Shown here: piece by piece, positions 47,441 through 62,253 of the stretch
Position numbering within the stretch: position 1 is the stretch's first letter
How the letters are laid out: every line of letters starts with the position of its first letter
Source: Candidatus Binatia bacterium
GTDB taxonomy: Bacteria > Desulfobacterota > Binatia > UBA9968 > JAJDTQ01
DNA length: 64,000 nt
Assembly (NCBI GenBank): GCA_963422385.1
Contig: OY729432.1
Span: forward strand, 818,467-882,466
Reading direction: 5' to 3'
Translations under genes and position numbers: made by a program
Notes under the pieces: model-generated
The model's input: only the letters and a program-made list of their open reading frames with translations
The model's database searches: none
What the model was told of the DNA's origin: nothing

Positions 47441-50188
47441 ATGAGCAAGATCGAGATTCAATTCGAGTTGAACGGCGAGACGCGCCGTGCCAACGTGACA
47501 CCCGAGCTGCTGCTGGCCGATTTCCTGCGCCACTCCCTGGGGCTCAAGGGCACCAAGACGAGCTGCGAGGTGGAGGTCTGCGGCGCCTGCACGGTGCTGC
47601 TGGACGGCCGTCCGGTGAGCGCCTGCGCCACCCTCACCCATGAGATCAACGGCCGCTCGCTGGCGACCATCGAAGGTCTCGGCAAGGCGGATGCGATGCA
47701 CGCGGTGCAGGAAGCGTTCTGGGAGGAAGGCGGCTTCGAGTGCGGCTTCTGCACCCCGGGCATGATCATGGCCGTCTGCGCCCTGCTCGACGAGAATCCG
47801 GAGCCCACGAAGGAGGACATCAAGACCGCCCTGGACGGCAATATCTGCCGTTGCACCGGCTACCTCTCCATCATCCGGTCGGTCAACCGGGCCGTCGAGT
47901 TGCTGCACGGGCGGGATGCAGCCCCCTCCCGGCCGGCGGAGGAGCGCCGCCTCGACGGCGCCGCCAAGGTCCGCGGCGAGCCGGTGTACACGGCCGACAT
48001 GACGCACCCGGGCATGCTCTACGGACGGATTCTGCGCAGCCCCCACGCCCACGCCCGGATCCTCGGCATCGACACGGCCGCGGCCGTGTCCCACCCCGGC
48101 GTGGTGGCGGTGCTTACCGCCGCCGACCTGCGGGACATCCCCGCCTACTACGGCCCGCTGGTGAAAGACATTCCCGTGCTGGCCACGGACAAGGTCCGGT
48201 ACGAGGGCGACCTCGTGGCGGCCGTGGCCGCCGAGACTCTGGAGGCGGCCACGGCCGCCACGGCGCTCATTCGCGTGGAGTACGAACCGCTCCCCGGACT
48301 CCTGACCATGGACGACGCACTCCATCCCGATGCCGCCCCGCTCCACGACTACGTGAGCGAGCACGGCACGAATTTTCCCGGATATCCCGGCGTCGACGAC
48401 GAGGCCAGGAAATACGCCAACGTGAGCTTCCACTACGAGCGCGGCAAGGGCAACGTCGACGACGGCTTCACCGCCTCGGAGCGAACCTTCGAGCACACCT
48501 TCGAGTTTCCCAAGATCGCCCACTACTCCATGGAGCCCCAACTCGCCGTGGCCGAGTGGCAGGAGGGCGGCTTCACGGTGTGGTCTTCCACCCAGCACCC
48601 GTTCATCATCCGCCAGGAGCTTGCGGAGATGTTCGGGGTGCCGCCGGAGCGGGTGCGGCTGGTCGTGCCGCTGGTGGGAGGCACCTACGGCAACAAGAAC
48701 CACACCAAGCTCGAGCCGCTGGCGGTGGCGCTGGCGCGCAAGGCCGGACGGCGGGTGTTCCTGCACCTGTCGCTGGAAGAAGAGTCCCGCACGGTGAGCA
48801 AGCCGGCCATGCGAATACGGCTCCGTACCGGTGTGGACCGCGACGGACTGCTGGTAGCGCGGGACTGCCTCGTGCACGTGGACGGCGGCGCCTACTCGGA
48901 CTCGGGTCCGCGAGTCACCCAGAAGGCGGGCTACCGGGCCCCCGGCCCCTACCGGATCCCGCACCTCCGCTCCCACTCGTACACCGTGTACACCAACACC
49001 GTGCCCGCCGGCGCGTTCCGCGGCATGGGCACGCCGCAGGTGGTGTGGGCCTACGAATCGCAGATGGACATGATCGCCCGGGAGATGGGTTGGGACCCGG
49101 TGGAGTTCCGGCTCAGGAATCTCCTCGACAAGGGCGAGGAGTTCGCGCCCGGTGAGACGCCCCTGGACTGCGACATCAAGGAGGGTCTCCTGCGCGCCGC
49201 CAGGGAAATCGGCTGGGGCGCGGAGGAACCGGGCCCCGATTGCGGCATCGGCTTCAGTTGCGGCGTCAAGGATGGCGGCGGCAACTACAAGATCTCATGC
49301 GCGCGGGTGGAGGTCGATGACGCCGGAGGGATCACTCTGCACGAGGGCACGGTGGAAATCGGCCAAGGGTCCCATACGGCCATGGCCCGCATCGCGGGGC
49401 ATGAGCTCGGGGTGCCGCCCACGGCCGTCCACGTGGCGCCCCTGGACACCGATTCGACGCCTTTCGACATGGGCACCTATGCCAGCAGCGCCACCACGGT
49501 CATGGGCCTGGCGGTGCAGAGGGCCGCCCAGGCCGTGCGCGGTCAGCTCATCGAGGCAGCCCGGTCACTGGGCAAGAGCCCCGACTCCGCCGCGACGCTC
49601 GCGGACGGCGAGGTGCGCCTGGGCGAGGTCGCGTTTCCTTTCTCGGCCCTGGTACGACACGTCAAAGGCGCCGGAGGCGTCCTTGTGGGAGAGGGCCGGC
49701 AGGAAAGCAGGCGGGACCCCAACGCGCCCCTCGGCGCCCGGGCGCCGTTCTGGGAAGTGGGATGGGGCGCCGCCAAGGTCCACGTGGACCGGGACACCGG
49801 GGATGTGCGGGTTCTCAAGTACGTCTCCATCGCGGACGCGGGCAAGGCCATCAATCCTCAGCAATGTCACACCCAGGAGCAGGGAGCCTTCCTGCAGGGG
49901 CTCGGACAGGCGCTGTTCGAGGAGACCATCTACGAGAACGGGCTGATGCTGACCCCCGACGCCCTGACCTACCGGCTGCCCAAAATTTCCGACCTGCCGG
50001 ACGACCTGGTCAATATCATCTTCGAGAACGGCAACGGCGCCGGCCCCTACGGCGCCAAGGGACTGGGAGAAAGCGGCATCCTCACCGTCCCGTCGGCCAT
50101 CGCCAACGCCGTGGCCCAAGCGGTGGACGTGCGCATCACCGACTTGCCGGTGACCGGCGAGAAGATCTGGCGCGCGCTGAAGAAGTGA
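47441..50188 (+). CDS. Single-chain aldehyde oxidoreductase (xanthine dehydrogenase family) with N-terminal 2x[2Fe-2S] fused to the Mo-pterin domains and no FAD domain (Desulfovibrio Mop-like)
   Basis: The N-terminal 155 aa have plant-type (CEVEVCGAC) and helical (CGFC...CRCTGY) 2Fe-2S motifs. The remainder is an XDH/CoxL-like Mo-binding large subunit. 915 aa. Confidence 0.8.
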   Translation: MSKIEIQFELNGETRRANVTPELLLADFLRHSLGLKGTKTSCEVEVCGACTVLLDGRPVSACATLTHEINGRSLATIEGLGKADAMHAVQEAFWEEGGFECGFCTPGMIMAVCALLDENPEPTKEDIKTALDGNICRCTGYLSIIRSVNRAVELLHGRDAAPSRPAEERRLDGAAKVRGEPVYTADMTHPGMLYGRILRSPHAHARILGIDTAAAVSHPGVVAVLTAADLRDIPAYYGPLVKDIPVLATDKVRYEGDLVAAVAAETLEAATAATALIRVEYEPLPGLLTMDDALHPDAAPLHDYVSEHGTNFPGYPGVDDEARKYANVSFHYERGKGNVDDGFTASERTFEHTFEFPKIAHYSMEPQLAVAEWQEGGFTVWSSTQHPFIIRQELAEMFGVPPERVRLVVPLVGGTYGNKNHTKLEPLAVALARKAGRRVFLHLSLEEESRTVSKPAMRIRLRTGVDRDGLLVARDCLVHVDGGAYSDSGPRVTQKAGYRAPGPYRIPHLRSHSYTVYTNTVPAGAFRGMGTPQVVWAYESQMDMIAREMGWDPVEFRLRNLLDKGEEFAPGETPLDCDIKEGLLRAAREIGWGAEEPGPDCGIGFSCGVKDGGGNYKISCARVEVDDAGGITLHEGTVEIGQGSHTAMARIAGHELGVPPTAVHVAPLDTDSTPFDMGTYASSATTVMGLAVQRAAQAVRGQLIEAARSLGKSPDSAATLADGEVRLGEVAFPFSALVRHVKGAGGVLVGEGRQESRRDPNAPLGARAPFWEVGWGAAKVHVDRDTGDVRVLKYVSIADAGKAINPQQCHTQEQGAFLQGLGQALFEETIYENGLMLTPDALTYRLPKISDLPDDLVNIIFENGNGAGPYGAKGLGESGILTVPSAIANAVAQAVDVRITDLPVTGEKIWRALKK

Positions 50189-50231: not shown

Positions 50232-50987
50232 GTGAACGAACCGGTGCGCAAGGACCGTTTCTACTTCAAGCTCTTCGACCGGCTCGACGCGCCCGGCTGC
50301 CCCATTTGCAGCATCGTGATCGAAGACAGCCGCGCCTATCTGGACAGCGTCCTCTACGAACGCGTTACCGACGTGCCTACGCGCGTGGGACTGCGGGACT
50401 CCTTCGGACTCTGCAACCTGCACACGTGGCAACTGCGCGACGTCCCGGCATCCAGCGCCCCGGACCTAGGCTTCGCCATCATCGCCAAGGACCTGCTGAG
50501 CCGGTTCCAGCGTTTGGCCGGAGAGCCCCCTGTTGTAGAATGGCGTACCCTGAAAGCCTGGCTTGGGCGCACACGATCACGCCTGCGCACCAGGCTCAAG
50601 AGGAGCCGCTGCCCCGCCTGCGTGCACGCCGCGCGTTCCGAGTCCATCCGCCTCCGGCAACTGCTGGACCTCTTCGGCGAAGTGGACTTCTTCGACGAGT
50701 ACCGGGCCGCCGACGGCATCTGCCTGCCCCATTTCCTCCTGGCCGAGGAAACCCACCCGGGCCACCCACACTCCGCGCGGCTCCGGGAACTCCAGCTCCT
50801 CAAGACGCGGGCCTTGCACGACACCCTCGACCAGTTCATCGAGAAAAACGACCACCGCGCGCGGGAGGAAATCACACCGGCCGAAGCCCGGGCCTGGACG
50901 GACGCCATGGAGCTCCTCCGCGGGAAGCGCAGCGTGTTCGACAGCGAGTTGCACCGCTCGTCGCCCCGACGTTGGAAGAGCCTCTGA
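50232..50987 (+). CDS. Cys/His-rich hypothetical protein with two CPxC...CxxH modules (possibly DUF6062-like)
   Basis: Two repeats each carry CPxC and a downstream CN/P-LH: GCPICSIV...LCNLHTWQL and RCPACVHA...ICLPHFLL. Lies 44 nt downstream of the Mop-like gene on the same strand. Confidence 0.4.
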   Translation: MNEPVRKDRFYFKLFDRLDAPGCPICSIVIEDSRAYLDSVLYERVTDVPTRVGLRDSFGLCNLHTWQLRDVPASSAPDLGFAIIAKDLLSRFQRLAGEPPVVEWRTLKAWLGRTRSRLRTRLKRSRCPACVHAARSESIRLRQLLDLFGEVDFFDEYRAADGICLPHFLLAEETHPGHPHSARLRELQLLKTRALHDTLDQFIEKNDHRAREEITPAEARAWTDAMELLRGKRSVFDSELHRSSPRRWKSL

Positions 50988-51411: not shown

Positions 51412-51717
51412 GGCCAGCCCCGAGACCGCGAGGGCCGCGTGTACGGGAGCGCCATCATAAGCTGCGGCAGGATGGGCCGCCGGTTGGCCAAGGAGATGAT
51501 CCGTCGCTCCTCTCCCTTGTGGCGTTCGCCCTTCAATCTGGCTTTACCCGGTGATTTCGGCTATAGGTAGCCCCCTTATGTCTCGGCATTCCGGCGTGCA
51601 GTGCCAGGTTGCAGTTGAGCAACGCCGTATCAAAGGGCACGACGCGCTGTCAACGAAGCATCTCGGCCTTGAATCACGCATCATGGAGCACGGGATTCGA
51701 CTTTCGCCCGGAGAGAG

Positions 51718-51939
51718 TTGCGCGTGATAAAGGTCGACCCCCACAAATGCGACGGCTGCGGCATCTGCGTCTACGACTGCGGCGCCGATGTCTTCCGCTT
51801 CACCAACAAGAAGGACAAGGTCTTTCCCTTCGGCAACAAGTACTGCGTCAACTGCTTCCTGTGCGAGCTCGTCTGCCCCGAAGACGCCATCGAGGTGGTG
51901 CTGCGGCCCAAGATGAAGCGCGCCGCCGCAAGCTCCTGA
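51718..51939 (+). CDS. 2x[4Fe-4S] ferredoxin
   Basis: CDGCGICVYDCG and CVNCFLCELVCP motifs. 73 aa. Confidence 0.75.
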   Translation: MRVIKVDPHKCDGCGICVYDCGADVFRFTNKKDKVFPFGNKYCVNCFLCELVCPEDAIEVVLRPKMKRAAASS

Positions 51940-51947
51940 GCGGACAC

Positions 51948-53624
51948 ATGACCGACTCCATCCCGACCACCGACTGCGACGTCCTCATCATCGGCGGCGG
52001 GTTGGCTGCCTGCATGGCGGCGCTGGAGGCGTCCAAGCGCAACATGGACGTGGTGCTGGTGGACAAGGGACGGCTCGGGCGAAGCGGCTCGAGCCCTACC
52101 TCCGGCGGGGTCCCGCAGGCAGCCTTCGGCCACGCCGACCCCCGCGACAGCAAGGAGATGCACTTCAAGGACACCATCGTCGGGGGCGACTTCATCCCGA
52201 ACCAGAAGATTGTCCGGGCCATCGTCAACGAGGTCACCGATCGGGTCATCGAGCTGGAGGAGATGGGGCTGCACTTCAAGAAGACGCCAGACGGCCGGAA
52301 ATTCCATCAGGAGAAACGTCTGGGCAGCTCCTACGCCCGCAGTTGCCCGCCGGTGGGCGGCAGCGTGGGGATGTTGGGCTCGCTGCGGAAAGAAGTATTC
52401 AACCGCGAGGTCCAGGTGCGCCAGTGGACCATGATCACGAAGCTACTGCGGCAGAACGGCCGGATCACCGGAGCCTTCGGCATCAACGTCCGGACCGGCG
52501 CTTACCAAGCATACCGCGCCCGGGCCGTGGTGCTGGCCGGGGGCAGCGCCATCGCCATCCAGAAGTACACCAGCGCCAACTTCCTGACCACGGGCGACGC
52601 CTACGTCGCGGCCTTCGAAATCGGCGCGCCCTTGGCCAACCTCGAGTTCCTGGAGTTCACGCTGATCCCGGCGCCCGGCGGCGAAGCCATCTCCATGGCC
52701 GGCCTGTCCCCTTTCACCAGCAAGGGCGGCCGCTTCTTCAACTCGCTGGGCGAACGGTTCCTGGAGCGGTACGATCCCGAGCGGCTGGAAGGCACGACCC
52801 GGGCCATCCTGGTGGGCGCCACCTACAAGGAAATGTTCGAGGGACGCGGCCCGGTCTACCTGGACCCGTCCTACATCCCGGACGAGAAGTGGGATGACGA
52901 AATCAGCTTCGAGTATTCCCCCAAGCTTGGCAAGGCCGGCGTCAACTGCCGCTCCGACCGGTTCGAGTGGGTGCCGGCGCTGCACACCTTCCTGGGCGGG
53001 CTTGACATCAACGAGCGGTGCGAGGTCCCAGGGGTGGAGGGTCTCTACGCGTCGGGTGAATCGGCCACCGGAACCCACGGCTCCAACCGGCTGTCCGGCA
53101 ACGCCATCGCCAGCGCCTTTGCGCTGGGCGCCCGGTCGGGCAAGTTCGCGGCCATCTACGGGGCGGACGCAGAGTTGGGCGAGGTGGACCCGGCGGAGAC
53201 CGCCGCGGAGGTCGCGAGGATCGAGGCCTTCAAGGGTGACGAAGGGCTGGATCCCACCGAGCTGCAACAGGAGATCAAGGAGATCGCGTGGGAGAGCACC
53301 GGCGTCGTGCGGAACGAGCGCGGGCTCACCACCGGACTGGAGCGCTTCCAGGAGATCCGCCGCGAAAAGGTCCCCCGGCTCAAGGCGGACAACATCCGCG
53401 CCCTCATCAAGTCCCTCGAATGCTCCAACCTTTCCTGGGTAGGCGAGATGGTCGCCCGCTGCGCCCTGGAACGCAAGGAATCCCGCGGCCAGCACACACG
53501 GGACGACTACCCGGAGAGGGACGACAAGAACTGCCTCAACTGGATCAAGGTGGAGAAGGACGGCGATCGGGTGAAGCCGATCATCAAGCCGATTCCGTTC
53601 GACGGGGCGGAGTTGAAACCCTGA
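51948..53624 (+). CDS. FAD-binding flavoprotein of the succinate dehydrogenase / fumarate reductase / AprA superfamily
   Basis: DVLIIGGGLAACMAA dinucleotide fold and the C-terminal RKESRGQHTRDDYPERDD signature. 558 aa. Starts 9 nt after the ferredoxin stop. Confidence 0.7.
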   Translation: MTDSIPTTDCDVLIIGGGLAACMAALEASKRNMDVVLVDKGRLGRSGSSPTSGGVPQAAFGHADPRDSKEMHFKDTIVGGDFIPNQKIVRAIVNEVTDRVIELEEMGLHFKKTPDGRKFHQEKRLGSSYARSCPPVGGSVGMLGSLRKEVFNREVQVRQWTMITKLLRQNGRITGAFGINVRTGAYQAYRARAVVLAGGSAIAIQKYTSANFLTTGDAYVAAFEIGAPLANLEFLEFTLIPAPGGEAISMAGLSPFTSKGGRFFNSLGERFLERYDPERLEGTTRAILVGATYKEMFEGRGPVYLDPSYIPDEKWDDEISFEYSPKLGKAGVNCRSDRFEWVPALHTFLGGLDINERCEVPGVEGLYASGESATGTHGSNRLSGNAIASAFALGARSGKFAAIYGADAELGEVDPAETAAEVARIEAFKGDEGLDPTELQQEIKEIAWESTGVVRNERGLTTGLERFQEIRREKVPRLKADNIRALIKSLECSNLSWVGEMVARCALERKESRGQHTRDDYPERDDKNCLNWIKVEKDGDRVKPIIKPIPFDGAELKP

Positions 53625-53672
53625 ACCAAGTGCACAATCGTCCCGCACCAGCCACGGCGAGAACCTCACCAC

Positions 53673-53962
53673 GTGTACGACTTCGAGTGGCATCCCGCCA
53701 AAGCCGCCAGCAACTTGCGCAAACACGGGCTTGATTTTAATCTCGCAGCCACGGTGTCCGAGGACCGACTCGCATCGACGGTGCGCGACGAAGACCACAG
53801 CGAGTCCGAGGACCGGTGGGTGACCGTAGGCGAATCCCGGAACACTGAGTTGTGGTTGTGTGTTACACTTCACGTCAAACCGACGACCGCACGACGGTGC
53901 GGATTATTTCGGCGCGACGGGCCACACCCAACGAACGACGCCAGTACGAGTCAGGCAAATGA
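53673..53962 (+). CDS. brnT: BrnT-family (DUF497) RNase toxin, reading frame interrupted by a shift in a GT repeat
   Basis: Frame 1 reads MYDFEWHPAKAASNLRKHGLDFNLAATVSEDRLASTVRDEDHSESEDRWVTVGESRNTE. At about 53846-53866 the BrnT-conserved end ...VVVVCYTSRQTDDRTTVRIISARRATPNERRQYESGK* continues in a different frame and stops at 53960-53962. The stop overlaps the next gene's ATG (ATGA). Confidence 0.6.
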
Positions 53963-56900
53963 AACGAGAGTACGACTTTTCCAAAGGTGAACGCGGCAAG
54001 TTCTACCGCCGGAACGCCAAGCTGAATATCCCACGCTCCACCGACAAGCCTGATTGGGCCGGGGCCGAAGGCCATCTTTGCGATTTCATGACCGCGGAGA
54101 CGGAAAAGACCCTCCGGGCCTACGGGGAACAACCGAGTCTGGTGACCGAGCATGCCAACCACGAACATGACACGGCCCACGGCGGCTATGCCCACCGGCA
54201 GCTCTTCGAGCTTGTCCAGAACAGCGCGGATGCTCTCGCCAACGCTCCCGATGGCAAAGGCATCCTGGTTCGCCTCACCGACGACTACCTCTATTGTGCC
54301 GATGACGGCAGAGCGATCGACGAGCCAGGTATCCAGGCGTTGATGTTCTCCCACATGTCGAGCAAACGAAACACCAGCGAGATCGGGCGGTTTGGGCTTG
54401 GCTTCAAGTCAGTGCTGGGAGTCACGAACGCCCCGGAGTTCTTCAGTCGGCCCGGTTCCTTTCGTTTCGACAAGAACCACGCGGCCAAGCGCATCGCCAA
54501 GGTCGCGCAAGCGGAACGCTACCCGGTGCTCCGGTTACCCATCCCCATCGATGCCCGTGAAGTGTCGGAGGACGACGAAGACCTTCGTGAACTCATGACC
54601 TGGGCAACTAACATCGTGCGGCTTCCGCTCAAACCGGGTGCTAGCGAGGACTTCGCTAAACAGGTTCAGGATTTCCCGCCAGAGTTCCTGCTGTTCGTCG
54701 ACCATGTCCGCTTTCTGAGCCTGGAACACAGGGAGCGAACGCGGGACTTCGTCCTCCAGAGATTAGACGGCGAGCTTCGACTCGACACGGACGAGGGATC
54801 TTCGCGCTGGAAATGCTTCAAGACCTACCACAGACTCTCTGTTGAAGCCCTCAAAGACCGGCGCTCGCTCGACGACAGCGGTGACGTGCCGATCTGGTGG
54901 GCGGCACCCCTGGACCGATTGGACTACCCAGGCTACTACTGGCACTTCTTCCCAACGAAGACGGCAAGTCTTCTGGCAGGTATTCTGAACGCACCCTGGA
55001 AGACCAACGAAGATCGCCAGAACCTGTTGCCGGGACCATACAACGACGAGTTGATCGATGTCGCGACGAGCATGGTGGCCAAGCGGTTGCCCGAGCTTGC
55101 CACTGACCAAGACCCCGCGTTGCACTTGGATGCCCTGCCGCGTCGGCATGAAGCCGGCGACACCGAGCACAGTGAGCGCCTCCGTGATCACTTGTATGAG
55201 AAACTGCGAAAAGGCCCCGTTGTCCCCGATCAGACCGGAACTTTGCGCAAAATCCAGGACATTTCCTATGCGCCCACAGCTCTGACTCAAGATCAAACGG
55301 GAGAAGCGTCGCTCAAGAAGTGGGCAGGCTTTGATCTGCGTCCAACGGATTGGCTTCACCACAGCACACTGACGCGTAATCGAATGGCCAAGGTCAACCA
55401 ACTTTTCGCCCAGGAACTTTTCGCCCAGGAACCTGCGTGGCAACAAGAGGCGCCTCGCGCATCCATAGCTAAGTGGTTGGAAGCTCTCATAGTAGAACGC
55501 GAGGGTCAAGCGACGATCATAGCCTCGAAGACGGCTCTTCAGGCGGCGGCAGCGATACCCGAGCGAAAGAGGACAGGAGAGCCGCTTGGCAACATTCTCC
55601 TGACGCAAAGCGACGACTGGTACGCGCCTGACCCGGAAAGCGTGTTCTTACCATCGTTCGATGATAGCGAAGGAGTTGACGACCGCTTGGTTCACAGGGC
55701 GCTGGTGTCTGATTCCGAGACTGCTGCGGCTCTGAACGTGCTGGGTATTAAGCACGTATCTCCCGAAGGCCGCTTTCGATCCCTTGCTAGGACATTGCTT
55801 ACTCGATGCACAAGCGAGCCGGACGAGACGCTGTGGGCCGACTTCTGGAGCGCGTCGCGTGCAGTGGAAACGGATCAGGCCTACATGATCGTCAAGAAAG
55901 TGACCGACCACGCATTGTCGATGACGACCGCCACATCCTGGCACGAGCAGGTCGTCATGACCATCAAGAAAGAGACCGACAAGGGACACGTCGATTGGAA
56001 CCCGTCGATTCATGCGCGTGCCCGGTCGGGCGATTGGCAACCCCTTCATTCGGTTCTGTTGCCTGGCGATATCGTGCCGAACGAAGGCGGCCGTGACCGT
56101 CGCGTCACAGTGGACACCGAGTTCCATGGTGCGGACTTGAAATTGCTCGACAGACTGGGGGCGACAGCCACGCCGAGGCAAGACCAGGATTTGTCGACCG
56201 ACCCTTGTTTCAAGTCGTTTTTGGTCGAATGCCGCCTTAAGTTCGTCGCCCGAGACCTTCCGAGGGACCCGCACTGGGGCAAACTGAATTTTGGTTCGAC
56301 AACAGGAAGTGGGCCGCTGCAAGTTCTGCCACTGCTCTCGAACGAAGGCAAGGCATGCTATACGGACGCCTTGTTGTCGCTGGAGACTTCCTTTGTCCGG
56401 TGGACAATGCGCCACGAAACCCAGAGCATCTACCCGCCACTCCCGTGTCAGAGTCCTGCCATCGCGTTGCTGCGCAAGCATGGCCGTATCCGTTGCGCTG
56501 GTGAATTCGTACCTTTAGCGGATGTGCTCGGTCCTCAACCGGCCAACCCTGCCGCACTGCAAGCTTTGCTGTCACACCGGATGGCGAACCGGATCAGGGA
56601 AGCCTTCGACCTTGCAGAACCGGTTGTGGAACCCGTCGGCGAAGAGGACTCGGTTCCTTTGACGGATGTGTGGCCCGGTTTGGCGCCGTACCTGACCGCG
56701 CACTCAAGGACATTCTCTCTCATCCGTTGCCAGCAACTTGCTGCTGGCGGCGGTACAAGTGGAGCCGAATGCATGCGGGTCGATGCCAGCATATACTTGG
56801 CTGGCACGGGTGATGAGGATTGCGACCTGCGGTTGGTTTCGCAGGAGCTCGGAATCGACCTGAATGACAACCAGCTTGAAGAGATCCTGCGATACGTTAC

Positions 56901-58521
56901 GCCGCAGGAAGTCGAGGCACAACGCGCGGCTATCCGGGAACTGACAACGGACGCCGAGAGGCTGTTCCACGCAGTAGGCGACGTCCGTCTGCGTTCATAT
57001 TTACCCGGATCGCTCTTGGCCGTGCTTGAGAGCGGCCGTGCGCCGCTGACTGGCGTTGAACTTGCGGAAGCGGCCATGGCCACATATCACACGGCGGCTC
57101 TCATGGAATATCGCCGGGCCTTGGATCACTTGGCCCCGCCCACGCGTTGGGCAGGGTCGCAGCCCGCGGTTGGCTTCGTCCAATCACTTGGATTCTCCGC
57201 GGAGTGGGCCGGACAACGGAGTTCACGCCATCCGCCGTTCCTGGAGGTAGAAGGCCCGTACTCGCTTCCGGAACTGCACGACTACCAGAAGTGCATCGTT
57301 GCCAGAGTGCGAGAGATGCTCTGCAATGGACGTATGGACGGTGGCGGGCGGCGCGGCATGATCAGTCTCCCAACCGGTTCGGGCAAGACACGCATCGCGG
57401 TGCAGGCCATCGTCGAGGCCATTTGCAGCGGTTTCACCGGCGGTGTCCTTTGGGTCGCAGACCGTGACGAATTGTGCGAACAGGCCGTGGAAGCATGGCG
57501 GCAGGTCTGGTCGAGCGTTGGCGCGGAAGGGAAGCGCCTGCGGGTTTCCAGGATGTGGGCCGGGCAGCCCCGACCTCTGCCGACAAGCGACCTCCACGTC
57601 ATTGTGGCGACGATACAGACGCTCAACGCCAAGCTGTCGAAGCAACCCGAAGATTACCGGTTCCTGGCTGACTTCAACTTGGTCGTTTTCGATGAGGCGC
57701 ATCGTTCCGTCGCGCCGACCTACACCTCTGTCATGCAAGAGATCGGACTGACCCGCTGGCAGCGAGGAAATGAACCCTTCCTGCTTGGCCTCACCGCGAC
57801 GCCTTACAGAGGGCACGATGAAGAGGAAACCGCCAGGCTGGTGCGTCGTTACGGCGGCAATCGCCTGGACGCCGGGGCGTTCGCCAACGACGAACCCTCA
57901 GAGGTCATTGGCGAGTTGCAGGAAATGAGCGTACTCGCGCACGCCGACCACCAGACCATCGAAGGCGGCGACTTCTCCCTGAGCCAGAATGAGTTGACGG
58001 AAATGCAGGCAATGCCCCATCCCGCATGGCTGCCACGCAGCATGGAGGACCGCATTGCCCGGGACGCGGACCGAACCAAACGCATTGTCGGTGCCTACAA
58101 GACCTTCGTTGGTAATGTTCACCGGGAGCAGTGGCCCACGCTGATCTTTGCCACTTCCGTGGAACATGCCAAGACGGTGGCAGCGCTGTTGAGCTCCGCA
58201 GGCGTCAGGTCCAGAGCCGTGAGTGGAGGGACAGAGACATCCGTTCGCCGAGACATTGTCGAGCGGTTTCGAGCGGGCCAGATCGACGTTCTCGTGAACT
58301 ACGGTGTATTCCGCGAAGGATTCGATGCGCCCAGGACACGGGTCATCATCGTGGCGCGGCCGGTCTACAGCCCGAACCTCTATTTCCAGATGATCGGCAG
58401 AGGGTTGCGGGGGCCGAAAAACGGAGGCAATGATCGCTGCCTCATCGTCAACGTGCGCGACAACATCGACAACTTCAACAAGGCGTTGGCCTTTTCCGAA
58501 CTGGATTGGCTCTGGGGGTAA
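53959..58521 (+). CDS. Large multidomain protein: BrnA-like N-terminal peptide, Hsp90/sacsin-type GHKL ATPase, about 900 aa unassigned, C-terminal SF2 DEAH helicase
   Basis: MKREYDFSKGERGKFY resembles the BrnA antitoxin N-terminus. Bergerat motifs follow: ELVQNSADA, YCADDGRAID and GRFGLGFKSV. The helicase motifs are I LPTGSGKT, II VFDEAH, III LTATP, V LVNYGVFREGFDAP and VI QMIGRGLRG. The ORF-track start is an upstream GTG at 53860. The ATG at 53959 is coupled to the brnT stop. Confidence 0.75.
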   Translation: MKREYDFSKGERGKFYRRNAKLNIPRSTDKPDWAGAEGHLCDFMTAETEKTLRAYGEQPSLVTEHANHEHDTAHGGYAHRQLFELVQNSADALANAPDGKGILVRLTDDYLYCADDGRAIDEPGIQALMFSHMSSKRNTSEIGRFGLGFKSVLGVTNAPEFFSRPGSFRFDKNHAAKRIAKVAQAERYPVLRLPIPIDAREVSEDDEDLRELMTWATNIVRLPLKPGASEDFAKQVQDFPPEFLLFVDHVRFLSLEHRERTRDFVLQRLDGELRLDTDEGSSRWKCFKTYHRLSVEALKDRRSLDDSGDVPIWWAAPLDRLDYPGYYWHFFPTKTASLLAGILNAPWKTNEDRQNLLPGPYNDELIDVATSMVAKRLPELATDQDPALHLDALPRRHEAGDTEHSERLRDHLYEKLRKGPVVPDQTGTLRKIQDISYAPTALTQDQTGEASLKKWAGFDLRPTDWLHHSTLTRNRMAKVNQLFAQELFAQEPAWQQEAPRASIAKWLEALIVEREGQATIIASKTALQAAAAIPERKRTGEPLGNILLTQSDDWYAPDPESVFLPSFDDSEGVDDRLVHRALVSDSETAAALNVLGIKHVSPEGRFRSLARTLLTRCTSEPDETLWADFWSASRAVETDQAYMIVKKVTDHALSMTTATSWHEQVVMTIKKETDKGHVDWNPSIHARARSGDWQPLHSVLLPGDIVPNEGGRDRRVTVDTEFHGADLKLLDRLGATATPRQDQDLSTDPCFKSFLVECRLKFVARDLPRDPHWGKLNFGSTTGSGPLQVLPLLSNEGKACYTDALLSLETSFVRWTMRHETQSIYPPLPCQSPAIALLRKHGRIRCAGEFVPLADVLGPQPANPAALQALLSHRMANRIREAFDLAEPVVEPVGEEDSVPLTDVWPGLAPYLTAHSRTFSLIRCQQLAAGGGTSGAECMRVDASIYLAGTGDEDCDLRLVSQELGIDLNDNQLEEILRYVTPQEVEAQRAAIRELTTDAERLFHAVGDVRLRSYLPGSLLAVLESGRAPLTGVELAEAAMATYHTAALMEYRRALDHLAPPTRWAGSQPAVGFVQSLGFSAEWAGQRSSRHPPFLEVEGPYSLPELHDYQKCIVARVREMLCNGRMDGGGRRGMISLPTGSGKTRIAVQAIVEAICSGFTGGVLWVADRDELCEQAVEAWRQVWSSVGAEGKRLRVSRMWAGQPRPLPTSDLHVIVATIQTLNAKLSKQPEDYRFLADFNLVVFDEAHRSVAPTYTSVMQEIGLTRWQRGNEPFLLGLTATPYRGHDEEETARLVRRYGGNRLDAGAFANDEPSEVIGELQEMSVLAHADHQTIEGGDFSLSQNELTEMQAMPHPAWLPRSMEDRIARDADRTKRIVGAYKTFVGNVHREQWPTLIFATSVEHAKTVAALLSSAGVRSRAVSGGTETSVRRDIVERFRAGQIDVLVNYGVFREGFDAPRTRVIIVARPVYSPNLYFQMIGRGLRGPKNGGNDRCLIVNVRDNIDNFNKALAFSELDWLWG

Positions 58522-58540
58522 CCACGCTGCACTCGACGTG

Positions 58541-58592
58541 CGGCAGGCTGCCGTCGTCGAGACACGCGCAAGAGGCTGCCTGACGCTGTCTC
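58541..58592. terminator. Possible bidirectional hairpin between convergent genes
   Basis: CGGCAGGCTGCCG palindrome plus the GAGACA...TGTCTC inverted repeat. There is no T-tract. Confidence 0.2.
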
Positions 58593-58619
58593 ACACGCAC
58601 TGGGTCCGAACGTAAGCCG

Positions 58620-59627
58620 TCACACCCGCGGCAGCACCGCCGCGCCGAACAGATCCATGGCCGCCAGGATGTCCTTCTGCTCCAACCCCGGAGTCCAGTC
58701 GAATCGCAGCAACAGCAGATCCGGCTTGAGGGATTCCTCGTAGGAGCGGATCTCCTCGATGCAGTCCACGGGGGAACCCAGGATGAAGCGATGGCGCGCC
58801 AGGCGGTCGAAGTCCCAGGTGAGTTCGTCGGGGTTGCTCATGGCATCGTCCTGGCCCCACCTGACGTAGACGTCGCGGTAGGGCTTGTCGAGGCAGGGGC
58901 GGGCCTTGGCCACGGCATCTTCCCGGGTGGGAGCCACGAAGCACTCCCGGACCATGACGACGGCGCCAGCGCCCGGCTTGCCGGTATCAGCCCACGCCTG
59001 GCGGAACAGCGCGATCTGGTCCCGCAGCTCCTCGATGGCCGAGTGGGGTGCCACCAGCCAGCCGTCGCTGATGCGGGCGGCGCGCCGGACTCCCTTGTCG
59101 CCGTTGGCCGCGATCCATACGGGTGGACGCGGCTGCTGTAGCGGTCGTGGCGCAATCGTTACGTCCTTCAACTCGAAGGCCTTGCCCGAGAACGAGACGT
59201 GCTCCTCCGTCCACAACCACTGGACGATCTCGACGCCCTCCACGAAACGGTGAAATCGCTGCTGCTTCGTCAGGTTGAAGGCATCCAGCTCCTGCTGCCG
59301 GTAACCGAGCCCGAAGGAGAAGAAGGAACGCCCTTCGTTCATGACGTCGATGGTGGCCAGCTCCTTGGCGATGATCACCGGGTCGTGGAGGCCGAGCAGC
59401 GTGGTGGCCGTGCCCACGCCGGCCCGCTTGGCTTCGGCGCAAAGCCGTCCCAGGAGCGGCACCTGATGAAGCCGCTGAAAGCCGGGGATGTTGTAGTGCT
59501 GGCCCATGGTGATGGCTTCGAAGCCGGCGTCGTCGGCGACCCGTGTCTGCTCCGCCAACGTGGGTAGAAGGCTCTCGGTGGGCTTGTCGATGGAAACCTG
59601 CGGATTGAACTGGATACCGAATTTCAT
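58620..59627 (-). CDS. LLM-class flavin/F420-dependent oxidoreductase
   Basis: MKFGIQFNPQ... luciferase-like TIM barrel. Starts at an internal Met of the 58620..60338 ORF, preceded by GGAG. Confidence 0.75.
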   Translation of the reverse strand: MKFGIQFNPQVSIDKPTESLLPTLAEQTRVADDAGFEAITMGQHYNIPGFQRLHQVPLLGRLCAEAKRAGVGTATTLLGLHDPVIIAKELATIDVMNEGRSFFSFGLGYRQQELDAFNLTKQQRFHRFVEGVEIVQWLWTEEHVSFSGKAFELKDVTIAPRPLQQPRPPVWIAANGDKGVRRAARISDGWLVAPHSAIEELRDQIALFRQAWADTGKPGAGAVVMVRECFVAPTREDAVAKARPCLDKPYRDVYVRWGQDDAMSNPDELTWDFDRLARHRFILGSPVDCIEEIRSYEESLKPDLLLLRFDWTPGLEQKDILAAMDLFGAAVLPRV

Positions 59628-61890
59628 GGTGTGCTCCTGTGTCTGTCGTGTCACGCGCTCCTCAACCCTTTCGGTTGAGGGCCCTCCAGACGCGCTCGGG
59701 CGTGAGGGGCAGCTCGCGGATCCCCACTCCCATGGCCCGAGCCAAGGCGTTGGCCACCGCCGGCGCCACCGCGACGATACCGGTTCGCCCATGCCCTTGG
59801 CGCCCCAAGGCCCCGGCCCATCGGCGTTTTCCATCAACGCGACCTCGAAACGGCGCGGCATGTCGGTGAAAGCCGGTACCCGGTAGTCGATGAGGTTGGG
59901 ATTGAGTGACTGGCCATTGTCGTAGAGCAGACTCTCACACAGGATGTGGCCCAGACCCATCATGGCCGCGTCCTCGGCCTGGAGCCGGTTGATGGCCTTG
60001 CCGACGTCGGCGACGATGGCGTAGTGTGGTACCCGTAGCTTGTTCGTCTCCTCGTCCACGATCACCGCAGCAGCCCCCATGCCGGTCTCCCAGAACACCG
60101 GGAAGTGCGAGGGAATCCTGCCGCCGGCACGCACGTAGCCACGGCCGATGCACTCGCCTCCGGGCATGGCGAAGTACGCCCGCACGACGGCGCCGTAGTC
60201 CATGCGTTGCCCGCCGGCCTTGGCCCGCCCGTCCTCCAGGGTCACGTTGCACGGGTCGCAGCCCATGACCTCGGCGGCGGCCTGCCGAACCTGCTCAAGG
60301 AGATCTTCGGCAGCGAACTTGACCGCCGTGCCCATCACCGTCGTGGAGCGGCTGGCGCCGGTGGAATGGCGTCACGTCGGTATCCGTGGCCCACATGACG
60401 ATTCGTTCCGGCGGAAGGCGAAGCCCCTGACCGCCACCTGACTCAGCACGGTCCGGGCCCCCTGCTCCACCTCGGTGCTGCCGGCCATGGGCACCACACT
60501 GCCGTCGCTCAGGAGACGCAGGATGGCGATGGATACGGGCATGGCCTCGGAGTCGGTGACGCCCACGGCGAGGCCCAGGTTGTCTCCCGGCGGACCCTGG
60601 TTCTCATCCCGGTCCACCATGAAGGCCAACTTTCGCAGGTCCATGTGCAGGTCCGCCCATGGGCTTGGCACCAAGCTTCAGGGGTTCGTTGCGGCGTAGC
60701 AGGTTCCGGAGGCGGAAAGCCAGCGGGTCGAGTTCCAGCCCCCGGCGGCGTCGTCCATGTGGGACTCCAGCGGGAAGATCGCATGGAGTCCGCCGATGGA
60801 TCGCATGGAGCCGGCAGGCGCGGTGTTGGTGTACACGGCGTAGACGCCGATGCGGTAATGAGGGATCCCGTAAGGGCCGTGGACCCGTGTGGCCACCCGC
60901 GGGCCGTTGTCGACGTAGACCACGGTGTCCAGGTGCACCTGCGCCTCACGCGCCACCACGGTACCGTCCCGTTGAACCCTGGTCCTCACGCGACAACGGG
61001 CCGAATGGCGCCGGATCGTCAGCATGGACTCGGACACGCTCTGGGCCAGACGGACCGGACGCCCGCCCGCGGTCCGGGCCAACGCCACCGCCAAGGGCTC
61101 GATCTTGAAATACGACTTGCCGCCGAAAGCGCCGCCGACGTAGGGCACCGTCACCCGCACGTTGGGCATCGGCACCCTGAACATCTGGGCGATCTCGGCG
61201 CGGACGAGGAACGGGTGAGCGGAGGAGGTCCAGAGCGAGATCTCGTCCCCCTCGAACCGGGCCACCGCGGTGTGAGGCTCGAGGGAATAGTGGCAGATCA
61301 TCGGGAACTCGAAGGTATCCTCGAACACCGCGTCGGCCTGCTGGAAGCCCGTGGCGACGTCGCCGGACTCGAGCTACTCGTGGTGACAGACGTTCCGCAG
61401 AGCTTCCTCCTCGACCGCGGGCAGATCATGGTACTACCCTGCCGAGGCATTGGCGTCATGCAGCACCGGAGCTTCCGGCGCCAATGCCTGATCCATGTCG
61501 GCCGCCATCGGAAGCTCTCGGTAACACACGCGCACCGAGGCCAGCGCATCTTCGGCGATATCGCCGCGCTCGGCCGCCACCGCCGCCACTGGCTCGCCGA
61601 CATAGCGTACCCGGTCCGTGGCAATGAGCGGCCGGTCCCGCAGACAGTGGCCGTAGTAGGGATCGATGTCCTTGACGGACTCACGGGTCAGAACGCCGTG
61701 AGCCCCTCGGCGTCGCGCACGTCGATGCTTTCGATCAAGGCGTGGGGAAACGGGCTCTGGAGCACCCGTCCCTCCAGTAGCCCCGGGAACTCCAGGTCGG
61801 CCGTGAACCGGGCCTTCCCGGTGACCTTCTCCACCCCTTCCGCGGCGGATGAATCGGCCGACGGTGGTGAAATGCGCCATCTGGCCGTAT
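59628..61890 (-). pseudogene. Xanthine-dehydrogenase-family Mo-binding subunit, a paralog of the Mop-like gene, disrupted
   Basis: Pieces collinear with the 47441 gene appear in ORFs 61688..62422 (N-terminus ...AEGVEKVTGKARF..., different frame), 61434..61880, 60678..61328 and the N-terminal third of 58620..60338. The last three share a frame but are separated by in-frame TAG and TGA codons. At least one frameshift lies near the N-terminus. Confidence 0.55.
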
Positions 61891-61899
61891 TCGGGCGGA

Positions 61900-62253
61900 C
61901 TACTTCTTGTAGTAGCGCAACTCGAAGGTGATGCAGCCGTTGGGGCTCTTGTAGGGCCCGTGCTTCATGCCCGGCGGGCGGCAGCCGTACATGCCCTTGG
62001 TGAACTCCTGGTTGAGCCGGGTGTCGATCAAGCTGCCTTCGACGATGATGACCTCTTCCCAGAAGTCGTGCTCGATGGTCTCGGTGGTCTCCACGCCGGC
62101 CGCGAAGTTGACCATGCGGGTGTAATTGCCGGTTTCCTTGTCCTCGCTCAGGATCTTTTCGGTGATCCCTTCGGCCGCGGCGCCCGAGTCGGCGCCCACG
62201 GGGCGCCAGCCGATGGTGTCGGTATCGAAAAACTCTCTTTCTTCCTTCGGCAT
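61900..62253 (-). CDS. Cupin-domain protein
   Basis: 117 aa with a cupin beta-barrel pattern (...TIEHDFWEEVIIVEGSLID...). Confidence 0.5.
   Translation of the reverse strand: MPKEEREFFDTDTIGWRPVGADSGAAAEGITEKILSEDKETGNYTRMVNFAAGVETTETIEHDFWEEVIIVEGSLIDTRLNQEFTKGMYGCRPPGMKHGPYKSPNGCITFELRYYKK

Follow-up and report, generated by a model that had tools for sequence, protein, structure and literature searches.

A BrnA-like antitoxin peptide on a GHKL-helicase protein encoded behind a broken BrnT toxin gene in Candidatus Binatia

The 64,000-nucleotide stretch of the Candidatus Binatia contig OY729432.1 that was analysed here (contig positions 818,467 to 882,466; hereafter the window) carries, at window positions 53673-58521, the remains of a gene for a BrnT-family RNase toxin, directly followed by a gene for a protein of 1,520 amino acids (aa) in which a GHKL-type ATPase is joined to a superfamily 2 (SF2) helicase. 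The first residues of this large protein resemble the N-terminus of BrnA, the antitoxin partner of BrnT. The features of the locus are as follows.

53673-53852, plus strand: 5' part of the BrnT toxin pseudogene (about aa 1-60, GTG start), matching positions 1-59 of Pfam BrnT_toxin and 76-82% identical to the intact orthologues in loci L001, L002 and L020
53850-53855, plus strand: one-base deletion that breaks BrnT (GTTGTTGG to GTTG-TGG), from DNA alignment with L020, L001 and L002
53849-53962, plus strand: 3' part of the BrnT pseudogene in a shifted frame, matching Pfam BrnT_toxin positions 53-77 and ended by the TGA at 53960-53962
53959-58521, plus strand: GHKL-helicase gene, 1,520 aa, intact, its ATG overlapping the BrnT stop (ATGA), from the open reading frame list, database identity and homologues
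53959-54045, plus strand: BrnA-like N-terminal peptide (aa 1-29, MKREYDFSKGERGKFYRRNAKLNIP...), from BrnA N-terminus matches, profile ranking and BrnT co-occurrence; predicted disordered, with no ribbon-helix-helix (RHH) domain after it
54070-55308, plus strand: sacsin/Hsp90-type GHKL ATPase and transducer-like domain (aa ~38-450), the part homologous to the Tiamat protein TmtA
55309-57243, plus strand: family-specific middle region (aa 451-1095), folded, without domain assignment
57244-58521, plus strand: SF2 helicase core like those of RadD, Hef and XPB (aa 1096-1520), from Pfam, PDB and Foldseek

The large open reading frame (ORF) runs uninterrupted from the ATG at 53959 to the stop at 58519-58521, its product is identical to database protein P0001, and more than 100 full-length homologues are found at 56-78% identity. 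The first-pass annotation, made from the sequence alone, had described it as a 1,520-aa fusion of a Bergerat-fold ATPase and a helicase, and this description holds. The GHKL motifs that it quoted are encoded at 54208-54234 (ELVQNSADA), 54295-54309 (DDG, as CADDG) and 54385-54411 (GRFGLGFKS), and the helicase motifs at 57370-57390 (PTGSGKT), 57691-57702 (DEAH), 57793-57804 (TATP) and 58387-58410 (QMIGRGLR); all are invariant across 32 homologues. Motifs I (ExxxNxxD), II (DxG) and III (GxxGxG) together with the Bergerat fold place the N-terminal part among the GHKL ATPases, and motifs I, II, III and VI with two RecA-like domains place the C-terminal part among the SF2 helicases. In Pfam, aa 1105-1484 match ResIII, DEAD and Helicase_C, and aa 81-173 match, both weakly, SACS and HATPase_c; the NCBIfam sacsin N-terminal ATP-binding domain scores above its cutoff. 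The GHKL module also resembles SMCHD1, MutL and MORC. For the helicase the PDB search gave RadD (E 4e-19), and Foldseek with the model of aa 751-1520 gave RadD again (E 1e-12), Hef, XPB, RIG-I-like helicases and the restriction helicases SauUSI and LlaBIII. RadD is the best NCBIfam helicase match as well, at 107.5 bits versus an equivalog cutoff of 720 (NF053632) and over the helicase core only, which falls short of the RadD family proper. The unassigned stretch between the two modules, put at about 900 residues in the earlier annotation, measures only about 640 (aa 451-1095); neither Pfam nor PADLOC finds a nuclease family in the large protein, and this middle region could hide a divergent nuclease fold. 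A later start at Met44 was considered and rejected, as 102 of 120 homologues share the N-terminal peptide, and a promoter scan of 53300-58900 found no sigma-70-like site.

Translated from the GTG at 53673, the BrnT frame covers only profile positions 1-59 and then continues as nonsense until the stop at 53988-53990; the C-terminal residues (VVVVCYTSRQTDDRTTVRIISARRATPNERRQYESGK*) lie in another frame (53849-53962), which is closed upstream by the TGA at 53846-53848. Alignment of the DNA with the three intact orthologues traces this to a single missing T at about 53852. An uninterrupted frame over the whole domain is thus absent from the window, and the intact toxin gene that the first-pass annotation assumed has to be given up. 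Its assignment to the BrnT family stands: when the two pieces are joined, the repaired toxin of 96 aa scores 87 bits against Pfam BrnT_toxin (PF04365; cutoff 34.5, E 1e-24, positions 1-77), and it matches the solved toxin PDB 7vd7 at E 7e-14. The ATGA stop/start overlap described there is also real (ATG 53959-53961, TGA 53960-53962), with the stop belonging to the shifted C-terminal frame, and the same overlap occurs in L001, L002, L098 and L099. The residues relevant to RNase activity in BrnT of Brucella abortus are Asp6, Glu7, Lys9, Arg41 and Glu78 (PMC5086665). Compared by eye, equivalents of the Lys (in WHPAK), the Arg (in EDRW) and the Glu (in NERRQYE) are present, and the Asp6 and Glu7 positions hold His and Pro, respectively, in the window, L001, L002 and L020. 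Programmed frameshifting was rejected as an explanation: the site has no slippery heptamer, and in other lineages the gene is broken by stop codons or deletions instead.

The large protein opens with ~25 residues (MKREYDFSKGERGKFY...) that share homology with the N-terminal end of BrnA antitoxins. A start of the form M[KR]xEYDFSxGxRG[KR]F[YFH] is present in 102 of its 120 best homologues, and annotated BrnA antitoxins adjoining BrnT on plasmids share this type of start: BrnA of Euhalothece begins with MRDEYDFSKGKRG... (more fully, MRDEYDFSKGKRGPAIPSKGKTRITIYLDD...) and continues into an RHH domain, and that of Agrobacterium has ...AVRGRFYKPTK immediately ahead of the RHH strand. I searched a profile of 27 residues of the family N-terminus against about 10,760 ORFs from all fetched loci, to which four BrnA proteins were added, and three of these BrnA proteins ranked highest after truncated family members (E 1.8e-5, 0.017 and 0.37), with every decoy above E 0.7. 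Residues 1-22 have a predicted local distance difference test score (pLDDT) below 50, that is, they are predicted to be disordered, as expected of an antitoxin segment that folds on its toxin. Pfam and NCBIfam give no match to aa 1-62 even at E<=10, and the RHH domain (PF14384) is absent. The Pfam BrnA model covers mainly the RHH domain, through which the control BrnA proteins match it, and is therefore blind to the peptide. A tblastn search of the 62-aa N-terminus against plasmids returned noise only.

This peptide and the toxin occur together. From 15 genome loci, 75 metagenome loci and 9 exact-protein loci, I tabulated the 68 distinct loci that include the N-terminus of the large gene and at least 330 nt upstream of it. 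A BrnT match lies upstream in 23 of the 25 loci whose large protein carries the peptide, and in one of the 43 whose large protein lacks it (Fisher's exact p = 9e-15). That one (L038) is an artefact of N in the sequence, and in the two peptide-bearing loci without a match (L009 and L096) remnants are visible by eye only, so that every peptide-bearing large protein has BrnT or a remnant of it upstream. Conversely, among the collected loci no intact BrnT was seen without a peptide ORF downstream, even in L013, where the large gene has suffered a big internal deletion and kept its first 428 codons. An unbroken BrnT ORF is present in 14 of the distinct loci (L001, L002, L005, L006, L013, L020, L021, L023, L033, L034, L036, L097, L098 and L099), and the fused arrangement is found in Binatia, Acidobacteriota, Gammaproteobacteria, a Spirochaetia metagenome-assembled genome and Gemmatimonadota. 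The linkage of the peptide to BrnT is strict and specific, and the co-occurrence of homologues with BrnT genes, which the first-pass annotation had named as a check on its hypothesis, is thereby confirmed. In L034 (3019-3600) the gene downstream of an intact BrnT encodes a family member that has a long-form BrnA N-terminal region of about 60-100 aa (…LTQAQKDELAGLDALPDDEIDTTDIPEVRDWSGAVRGLFH…, which contains ...PDDEIDTTDIPEVRDWSGAVRG...) at its N-terminus, a second BrnA fusion within the family and distinct from the first. The first 60 residues of the large protein, singled out earlier for co-expression with the toxin, were well chosen, as they contain the BrnA-derived peptide and the long extension in L034 is BrnA-like too.

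An exhaustive search for the wider family (query aa 33-1090, clusters at 50% identity) returned 492 clusters at E<=1e-30 and 1,219 at E<=1e-10, nearly all of 1,450-1,600 aa, and six distant members that were checked show the same layout of an N-terminal GHKL module and a C-terminal helicase, with TmtA models matched N-terminally only. The BrnA peptide is present in 5 of 104 family representatives with a complete N-terminus. The region ahead of the conserved W-x-G-x-x-G-x-L-G motif is in fact a variable slot, which may also hold a conserved ~300-aa domain without Pfam match (P0168, P0193, P0209), lysine/arginine-rich tails or a segment resembling tetratricopeptide repeats (P0129); N-terminal tails fill it in P0130, P0135, P0136 and P0150, and the extensions of P0129, P0168, P0193 and P0220 gave no Pfam assignment. 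In a neighbour-joining tree the peptide-bearing members are nested inside the BrnT-free family, and a BrnT-free group (L024-L032) falls between two peptide-bearing groups, which implies that the arrangement was either gained and later lost or gained more than once; a separate form of the fusion is seen in L034.

In the deeper branches, represented by metagenome loci L043-L087, the gene for the homologue (33-47% identity) always has genes for a UvrD-like superfamily 1 helicase and a DrmA-like protein (PADLOC DrmA E 1e-126 to 1e-141) downstream of it and often, upstream, one for a C5 DNA methyltransferase (DruM/DrmMII-like) or a divergent helix-turn-helix-GHKL protein (PADLOC PDC-M33A); examples of these DISARM-like operons are L084:10430-12598, L087:8710-10674, L054:477-1826 and L080:871-3204. 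No full-length family member was found in 2.9 million viral contigs, and the family is therefore not phage-borne. These proteins are most likely ATP-driven motors for nucleic-acid surveillance or defence, probably antiviral, a reading in keeping with the way in which GHKL ATPases generally act together with SF2 helicases, cytosine methylases and nucleases in restriction-like systems (PMC2292703).

Set against known systems, the module is a type II toxin-antitoxin cassette grafted onto a Tiamat-related, DISARM-associated GHKL-helicase. As in BrnT/BrnA of B. abortus (PF04365, PF14384), a gene for a BrnT-family RNase precedes the partner gene and overlaps its start, and the partner opens with the BrnA N-terminal segment (EYDFSKGxRG...). 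However, in place of the canonical BrnA, an RHH protein of ~70-100 aa, the partner has 1,520 aa and no RHH, and in the window the toxin is frameshifted; the stop/start overlap of a BrnTA module is thus present and the small BrnA with a C-terminal RHH (PF14384) is not. Without the RHH domain, autoregulation of the promoter through it is impossible here. With TmtA, the single protein of the anti-phage system Tiamat, the large protein shares a similar overall size and homology over the N-terminal ~420-530 residues (E 2e-53). The PADLOC TmtA models reach only aa 42-452/514 of it, the best of them (PDLC03964, 1,538 positions) matching at its positions 11-423 only and the others likewise N-terminally. 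The remainder of the TmtA profiles is unmatched by the large protein, which ends in an SF2 helicase, whereas Tiamat has no toxin partner and is reported to contain a PD-(D/E)XK nuclease (bioRxiv 10.1101/2024.10.26.620412).

GHKL ATPases of the MORC/paraMORC type and SF2 helicases have been described in restriction-modification-like operons (Iyer, Abhiman and Aravind 2008, PMC2292703). The pairing of the two activities is shared with these and with DISARM, as is, for the distant members, the neighbourhood of C5 methyltransferase, DrmA-like and UvrD-like genes. Here, however, both activities reside in one polypeptide, whose GHKL module stands closer to that of sacsin/Hsp90 than to the MORC type, and the clade of the window has no methyltransferase, DrmA, DrmB or DrmC nearby; the DISARM core is missing. 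CapRel SJ46 and the toxin-antitoxin-chaperone systems also join an antitoxin element to a larger sensing or chaperone-like module, but they involve other toxin families, and here the toxin is separate and the antitoxin peptide sits on an Hsp90-like ATPase-helicase. Judged by sequence comparison, the module is not a canonical BrnTA (no RHH, a large partner, a broken toxin), not Tiamat (N-terminal third only) and not DISARM (no Drm partners). That the first-pass annotation could match this architecture to no described defence system is borne out: no named system covers the pair, the TmtA match being limited as given above. In the literature searched (on Tiamat/TmtA, on BrnT together with helicase or sacsin, and on DISARM together with GHKL, sacsin or MORC) I found no description of a BrnT-linked GHKL-helicase or its family, nor of a DISARM-like operon with a GHKL-helicase component, and the BrnT-to-motor arrangement appears to be undescribed.

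The surroundings in the window are metabolic. Upstream lie three genes:

47441-50188: xanthine-dehydrogenase-family molybdenum (Mo)/2Fe-2S enzyme, intact
50232-50987: DUF6062 protein
51609-53624: fumarate-reductase/succinate-dehydrogenase-like FAD flavoprotein

Downstream, on the minus strand at 59665-61984, a paralogous xanthine-dehydrogenase-family molybdoenzyme gene is a pseudogene: compared with its 790-aa orthologue in L001, which is intact, it has four in-frame stops and two frameshifts. At the 3' end it reads in frame into the luciferase-like monooxygenase ORF at 58620-60338, which accounts for the combination of MoCoBD_2 and Bac_luciferase Pfam matches in that ORF. Synteny with the Candidatus Binatia genomes L001, L002 and L014 covers the flavoprotein gene and, on the downstream side, the luciferase-like and Mo-enzyme genes, which makes a Binatia origin of the window most likely.

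My reading, with moderate confidence, is that the locus is a two-gene module in which a defence-type motor has captured a brnTA cassette and now carries its antitoxin peptide. The cassette would have landed upstream of the motor gene, the antitoxin would have lost its RHH DNA-binding domain, and the N-terminal ~25-residue segment of BrnA would have become fused in frame to the N-terminus of the motor. The peptide, to judge from its homology to BrnA and its strict co-occurrence with BrnT, would bind and silence the RNase, and the motor itself would then be the antitoxin. More speculatively, a change of state of the motor at foreign nucleic acid, or its destruction or blockage by a phage factor, could set the toxin free as an abortive-infection back-up. 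PrrC, an anticodon nuclease kept latent by the type I restriction enzyme EcoprrI, offers a parallel in logic only: an RNase toxin silenced on a DNA-surveillance enzyme that contains an SF2 helicase, possibly a back-up under attack. There is no sequence relationship, the association here would run through the fused antitoxin peptide, and activation is putative. Triggered release of the toxin is a plausible hypothesis, and in this genome it is probably defunct. The most specific version, in which a ~25-residue antitoxin peptide docks a free RNase toxin on a GHKL-helicase immune motor and nucleotide state or destruction by phage decides on its release, I offer as a tentative proposal that is more likely wrong than right.

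Several observations speak against a captured toxin under the control of the motor. BrnT has decayed in about 14 loci, the window included, roughly half of those bearing the peptide, with the large gene staying intact. A one-base deletion is responsible in the window and in L015, a TAG stop in L003/L095, a 5' truncation with a TAA stop in L011, a frameshift with a TAA stop in L039 and a 5' truncation in L041; L004, L014, L096 and L183 retain the C-terminal remnant alone, and in L009 and L180-L182 the gene is gone. In a syntenic Acidobacteriota clade (SelR, UPF0102, gap, large gene, aminotransferase, CysS) none of ten sampled loci has a functional BrnT. The toxin is therefore dispensable, and as ~95% of the family clusters have neither BrnT nor peptide, the motor evidently works without it. 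The peptide persists nevertheless: over 12 proteins of the Acidobacteriota clade, for some but not all of which the BrnT status is known, pairwise identity is 84.5% in the peptide core (aa 1-17), 82% in the whole protein and 65% in the linker that follows, a conservation that is not explained by the silencing of a cis-encoded toxin. DrmA-like, UvrD-like and methyltransferase partners were found by tblastn neither in the 64-kb window nor at any close-clade locus. Close-clade loci are set among housekeeping genes and not in defence islands, with neighbours that vary between phyla, the defence role of the family is guilt by association only, and no structure of a BrnTA complex exists.

Two further observations concern the decayed loci. 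The independent point lesions in BrnT are oddly clustered: five of six, namely two deletions of 1 nt and three stop codons, fall within ~18 of the 288 nt, just ahead of the LLVVxHT strand (53835-53860 in the window, with the corresponding positions in L003/L095, L011, L015 and L039/L040). This clustering may reflect a mutational hotspot or selection. Other gene pairs of note are found nearby in two of these loci: a HicA/HicB toxin-antitoxin pair fills the gap of the lost BrnT directly upstream of the large gene in the Acidobacteriota locus L181 (959-1343), and an AbiEi/AbiEii pair lies about 4 kb upstream in L095.

The main rival to the capture of an antitoxin by a defence motor is a selfish addiction module, in which brnTA was inserted upstream and the antitoxin fused by chance, the pair merely stabilising itself and the ATPase/helicase exerting no control over the toxin. 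The frequent and independent loss of the toxin, as in chromosomal toxin-antitoxin pairs, the many clusters that function without BrnT, the housekeeping surroundings and the nested group L024-L032, which suggests joint loss of toxin and peptide, are all compatible with this. It accounts less well for a fused arrangement that is kept across several phyla and arose at least twice, with a short and a long BrnA form, and a purely selfish module does not predict constraint on the peptide after BrnT is lost; I consider it possible but not probable. The retention of the peptide fits neither explanation fully and suggests a further role, for example the neutralisation of BrnT paralogues in trans. That the large protein is instead a factor for DNA repair or chromosome maintenance, with BrnT an unrelated passenger, seems improbable. 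Among solved helicases the repair helicase RadD is closest, the GHKL module has kin in SMCHD1, MutL and MORC, and its chromosomal position beside core metabolic genes is conserved within Acidobacteriota and within Binatia (window, L001, L002 and L014). However, the score of 107 bits lies far under the RadD cutoff of 720, the distribution over phyla is patchy, the whole gene has decayed in L013, L014 and L041, methyltransferase, DrmA and UvrD-like genes accompany the distant members in tight linkage, and the N-terminal third is homologous to a Tiamat defence protein.

The broken toxin could, alternatively, be an assembly error, with BrnT intact and active in the organism. The lesion is a single-base deletion, the close relatives L001, L002 and L020 have an intact gene, and the sequence comes from one ~3.95-Mb contig of a metagenome-assembled genome, typical of indel-prone long-read assemblies (the sequencing method is deduced from this). 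I nevertheless rate an artefact as rather unlikely and am fairly confident that the lesion is real, since the deletion lies in a TT dinucleotide and not in a long homopolymer, frameshifts are absent from the neighbouring ORFs, which add up to ~9 kb (4.6, 2.7 and 2.0 kb), and the in-frame stops of the adjacent Mo-enzyme gene show that genes do decay here; other lineages, moreover, have inactivated BrnT by stop codons and deletions. In this genome BrnT is thus probably dead, and only the motor, which still bears its peptide, is probably functional.

The broken toxin lowers the interest of the window itself, but the pattern at the level of the family is well supported and experimentally tractable. 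With its Tiamat-related N-terminus and the DISARM-like operons of its deeper branches, this widespread and uncharacterised family of about 500 clusters offers a concrete target for tests of a role in defence, and the repeated loss of the toxin beside a conserved peptide raises the question of what role an orphan antitoxin peptide may have. If the peptide silences BrnT, the fusion would mark the ~25 N-terminal residues of BrnA as a minimal toxin-neutralising element, and a toxin-antitoxin cassette could then be attached to a large enzyme by the transfer of a short peptide alone. Should the toxin indeed be docked on the motor in this way, these proteins would represent a new class of toxin-armed defence enzyme.

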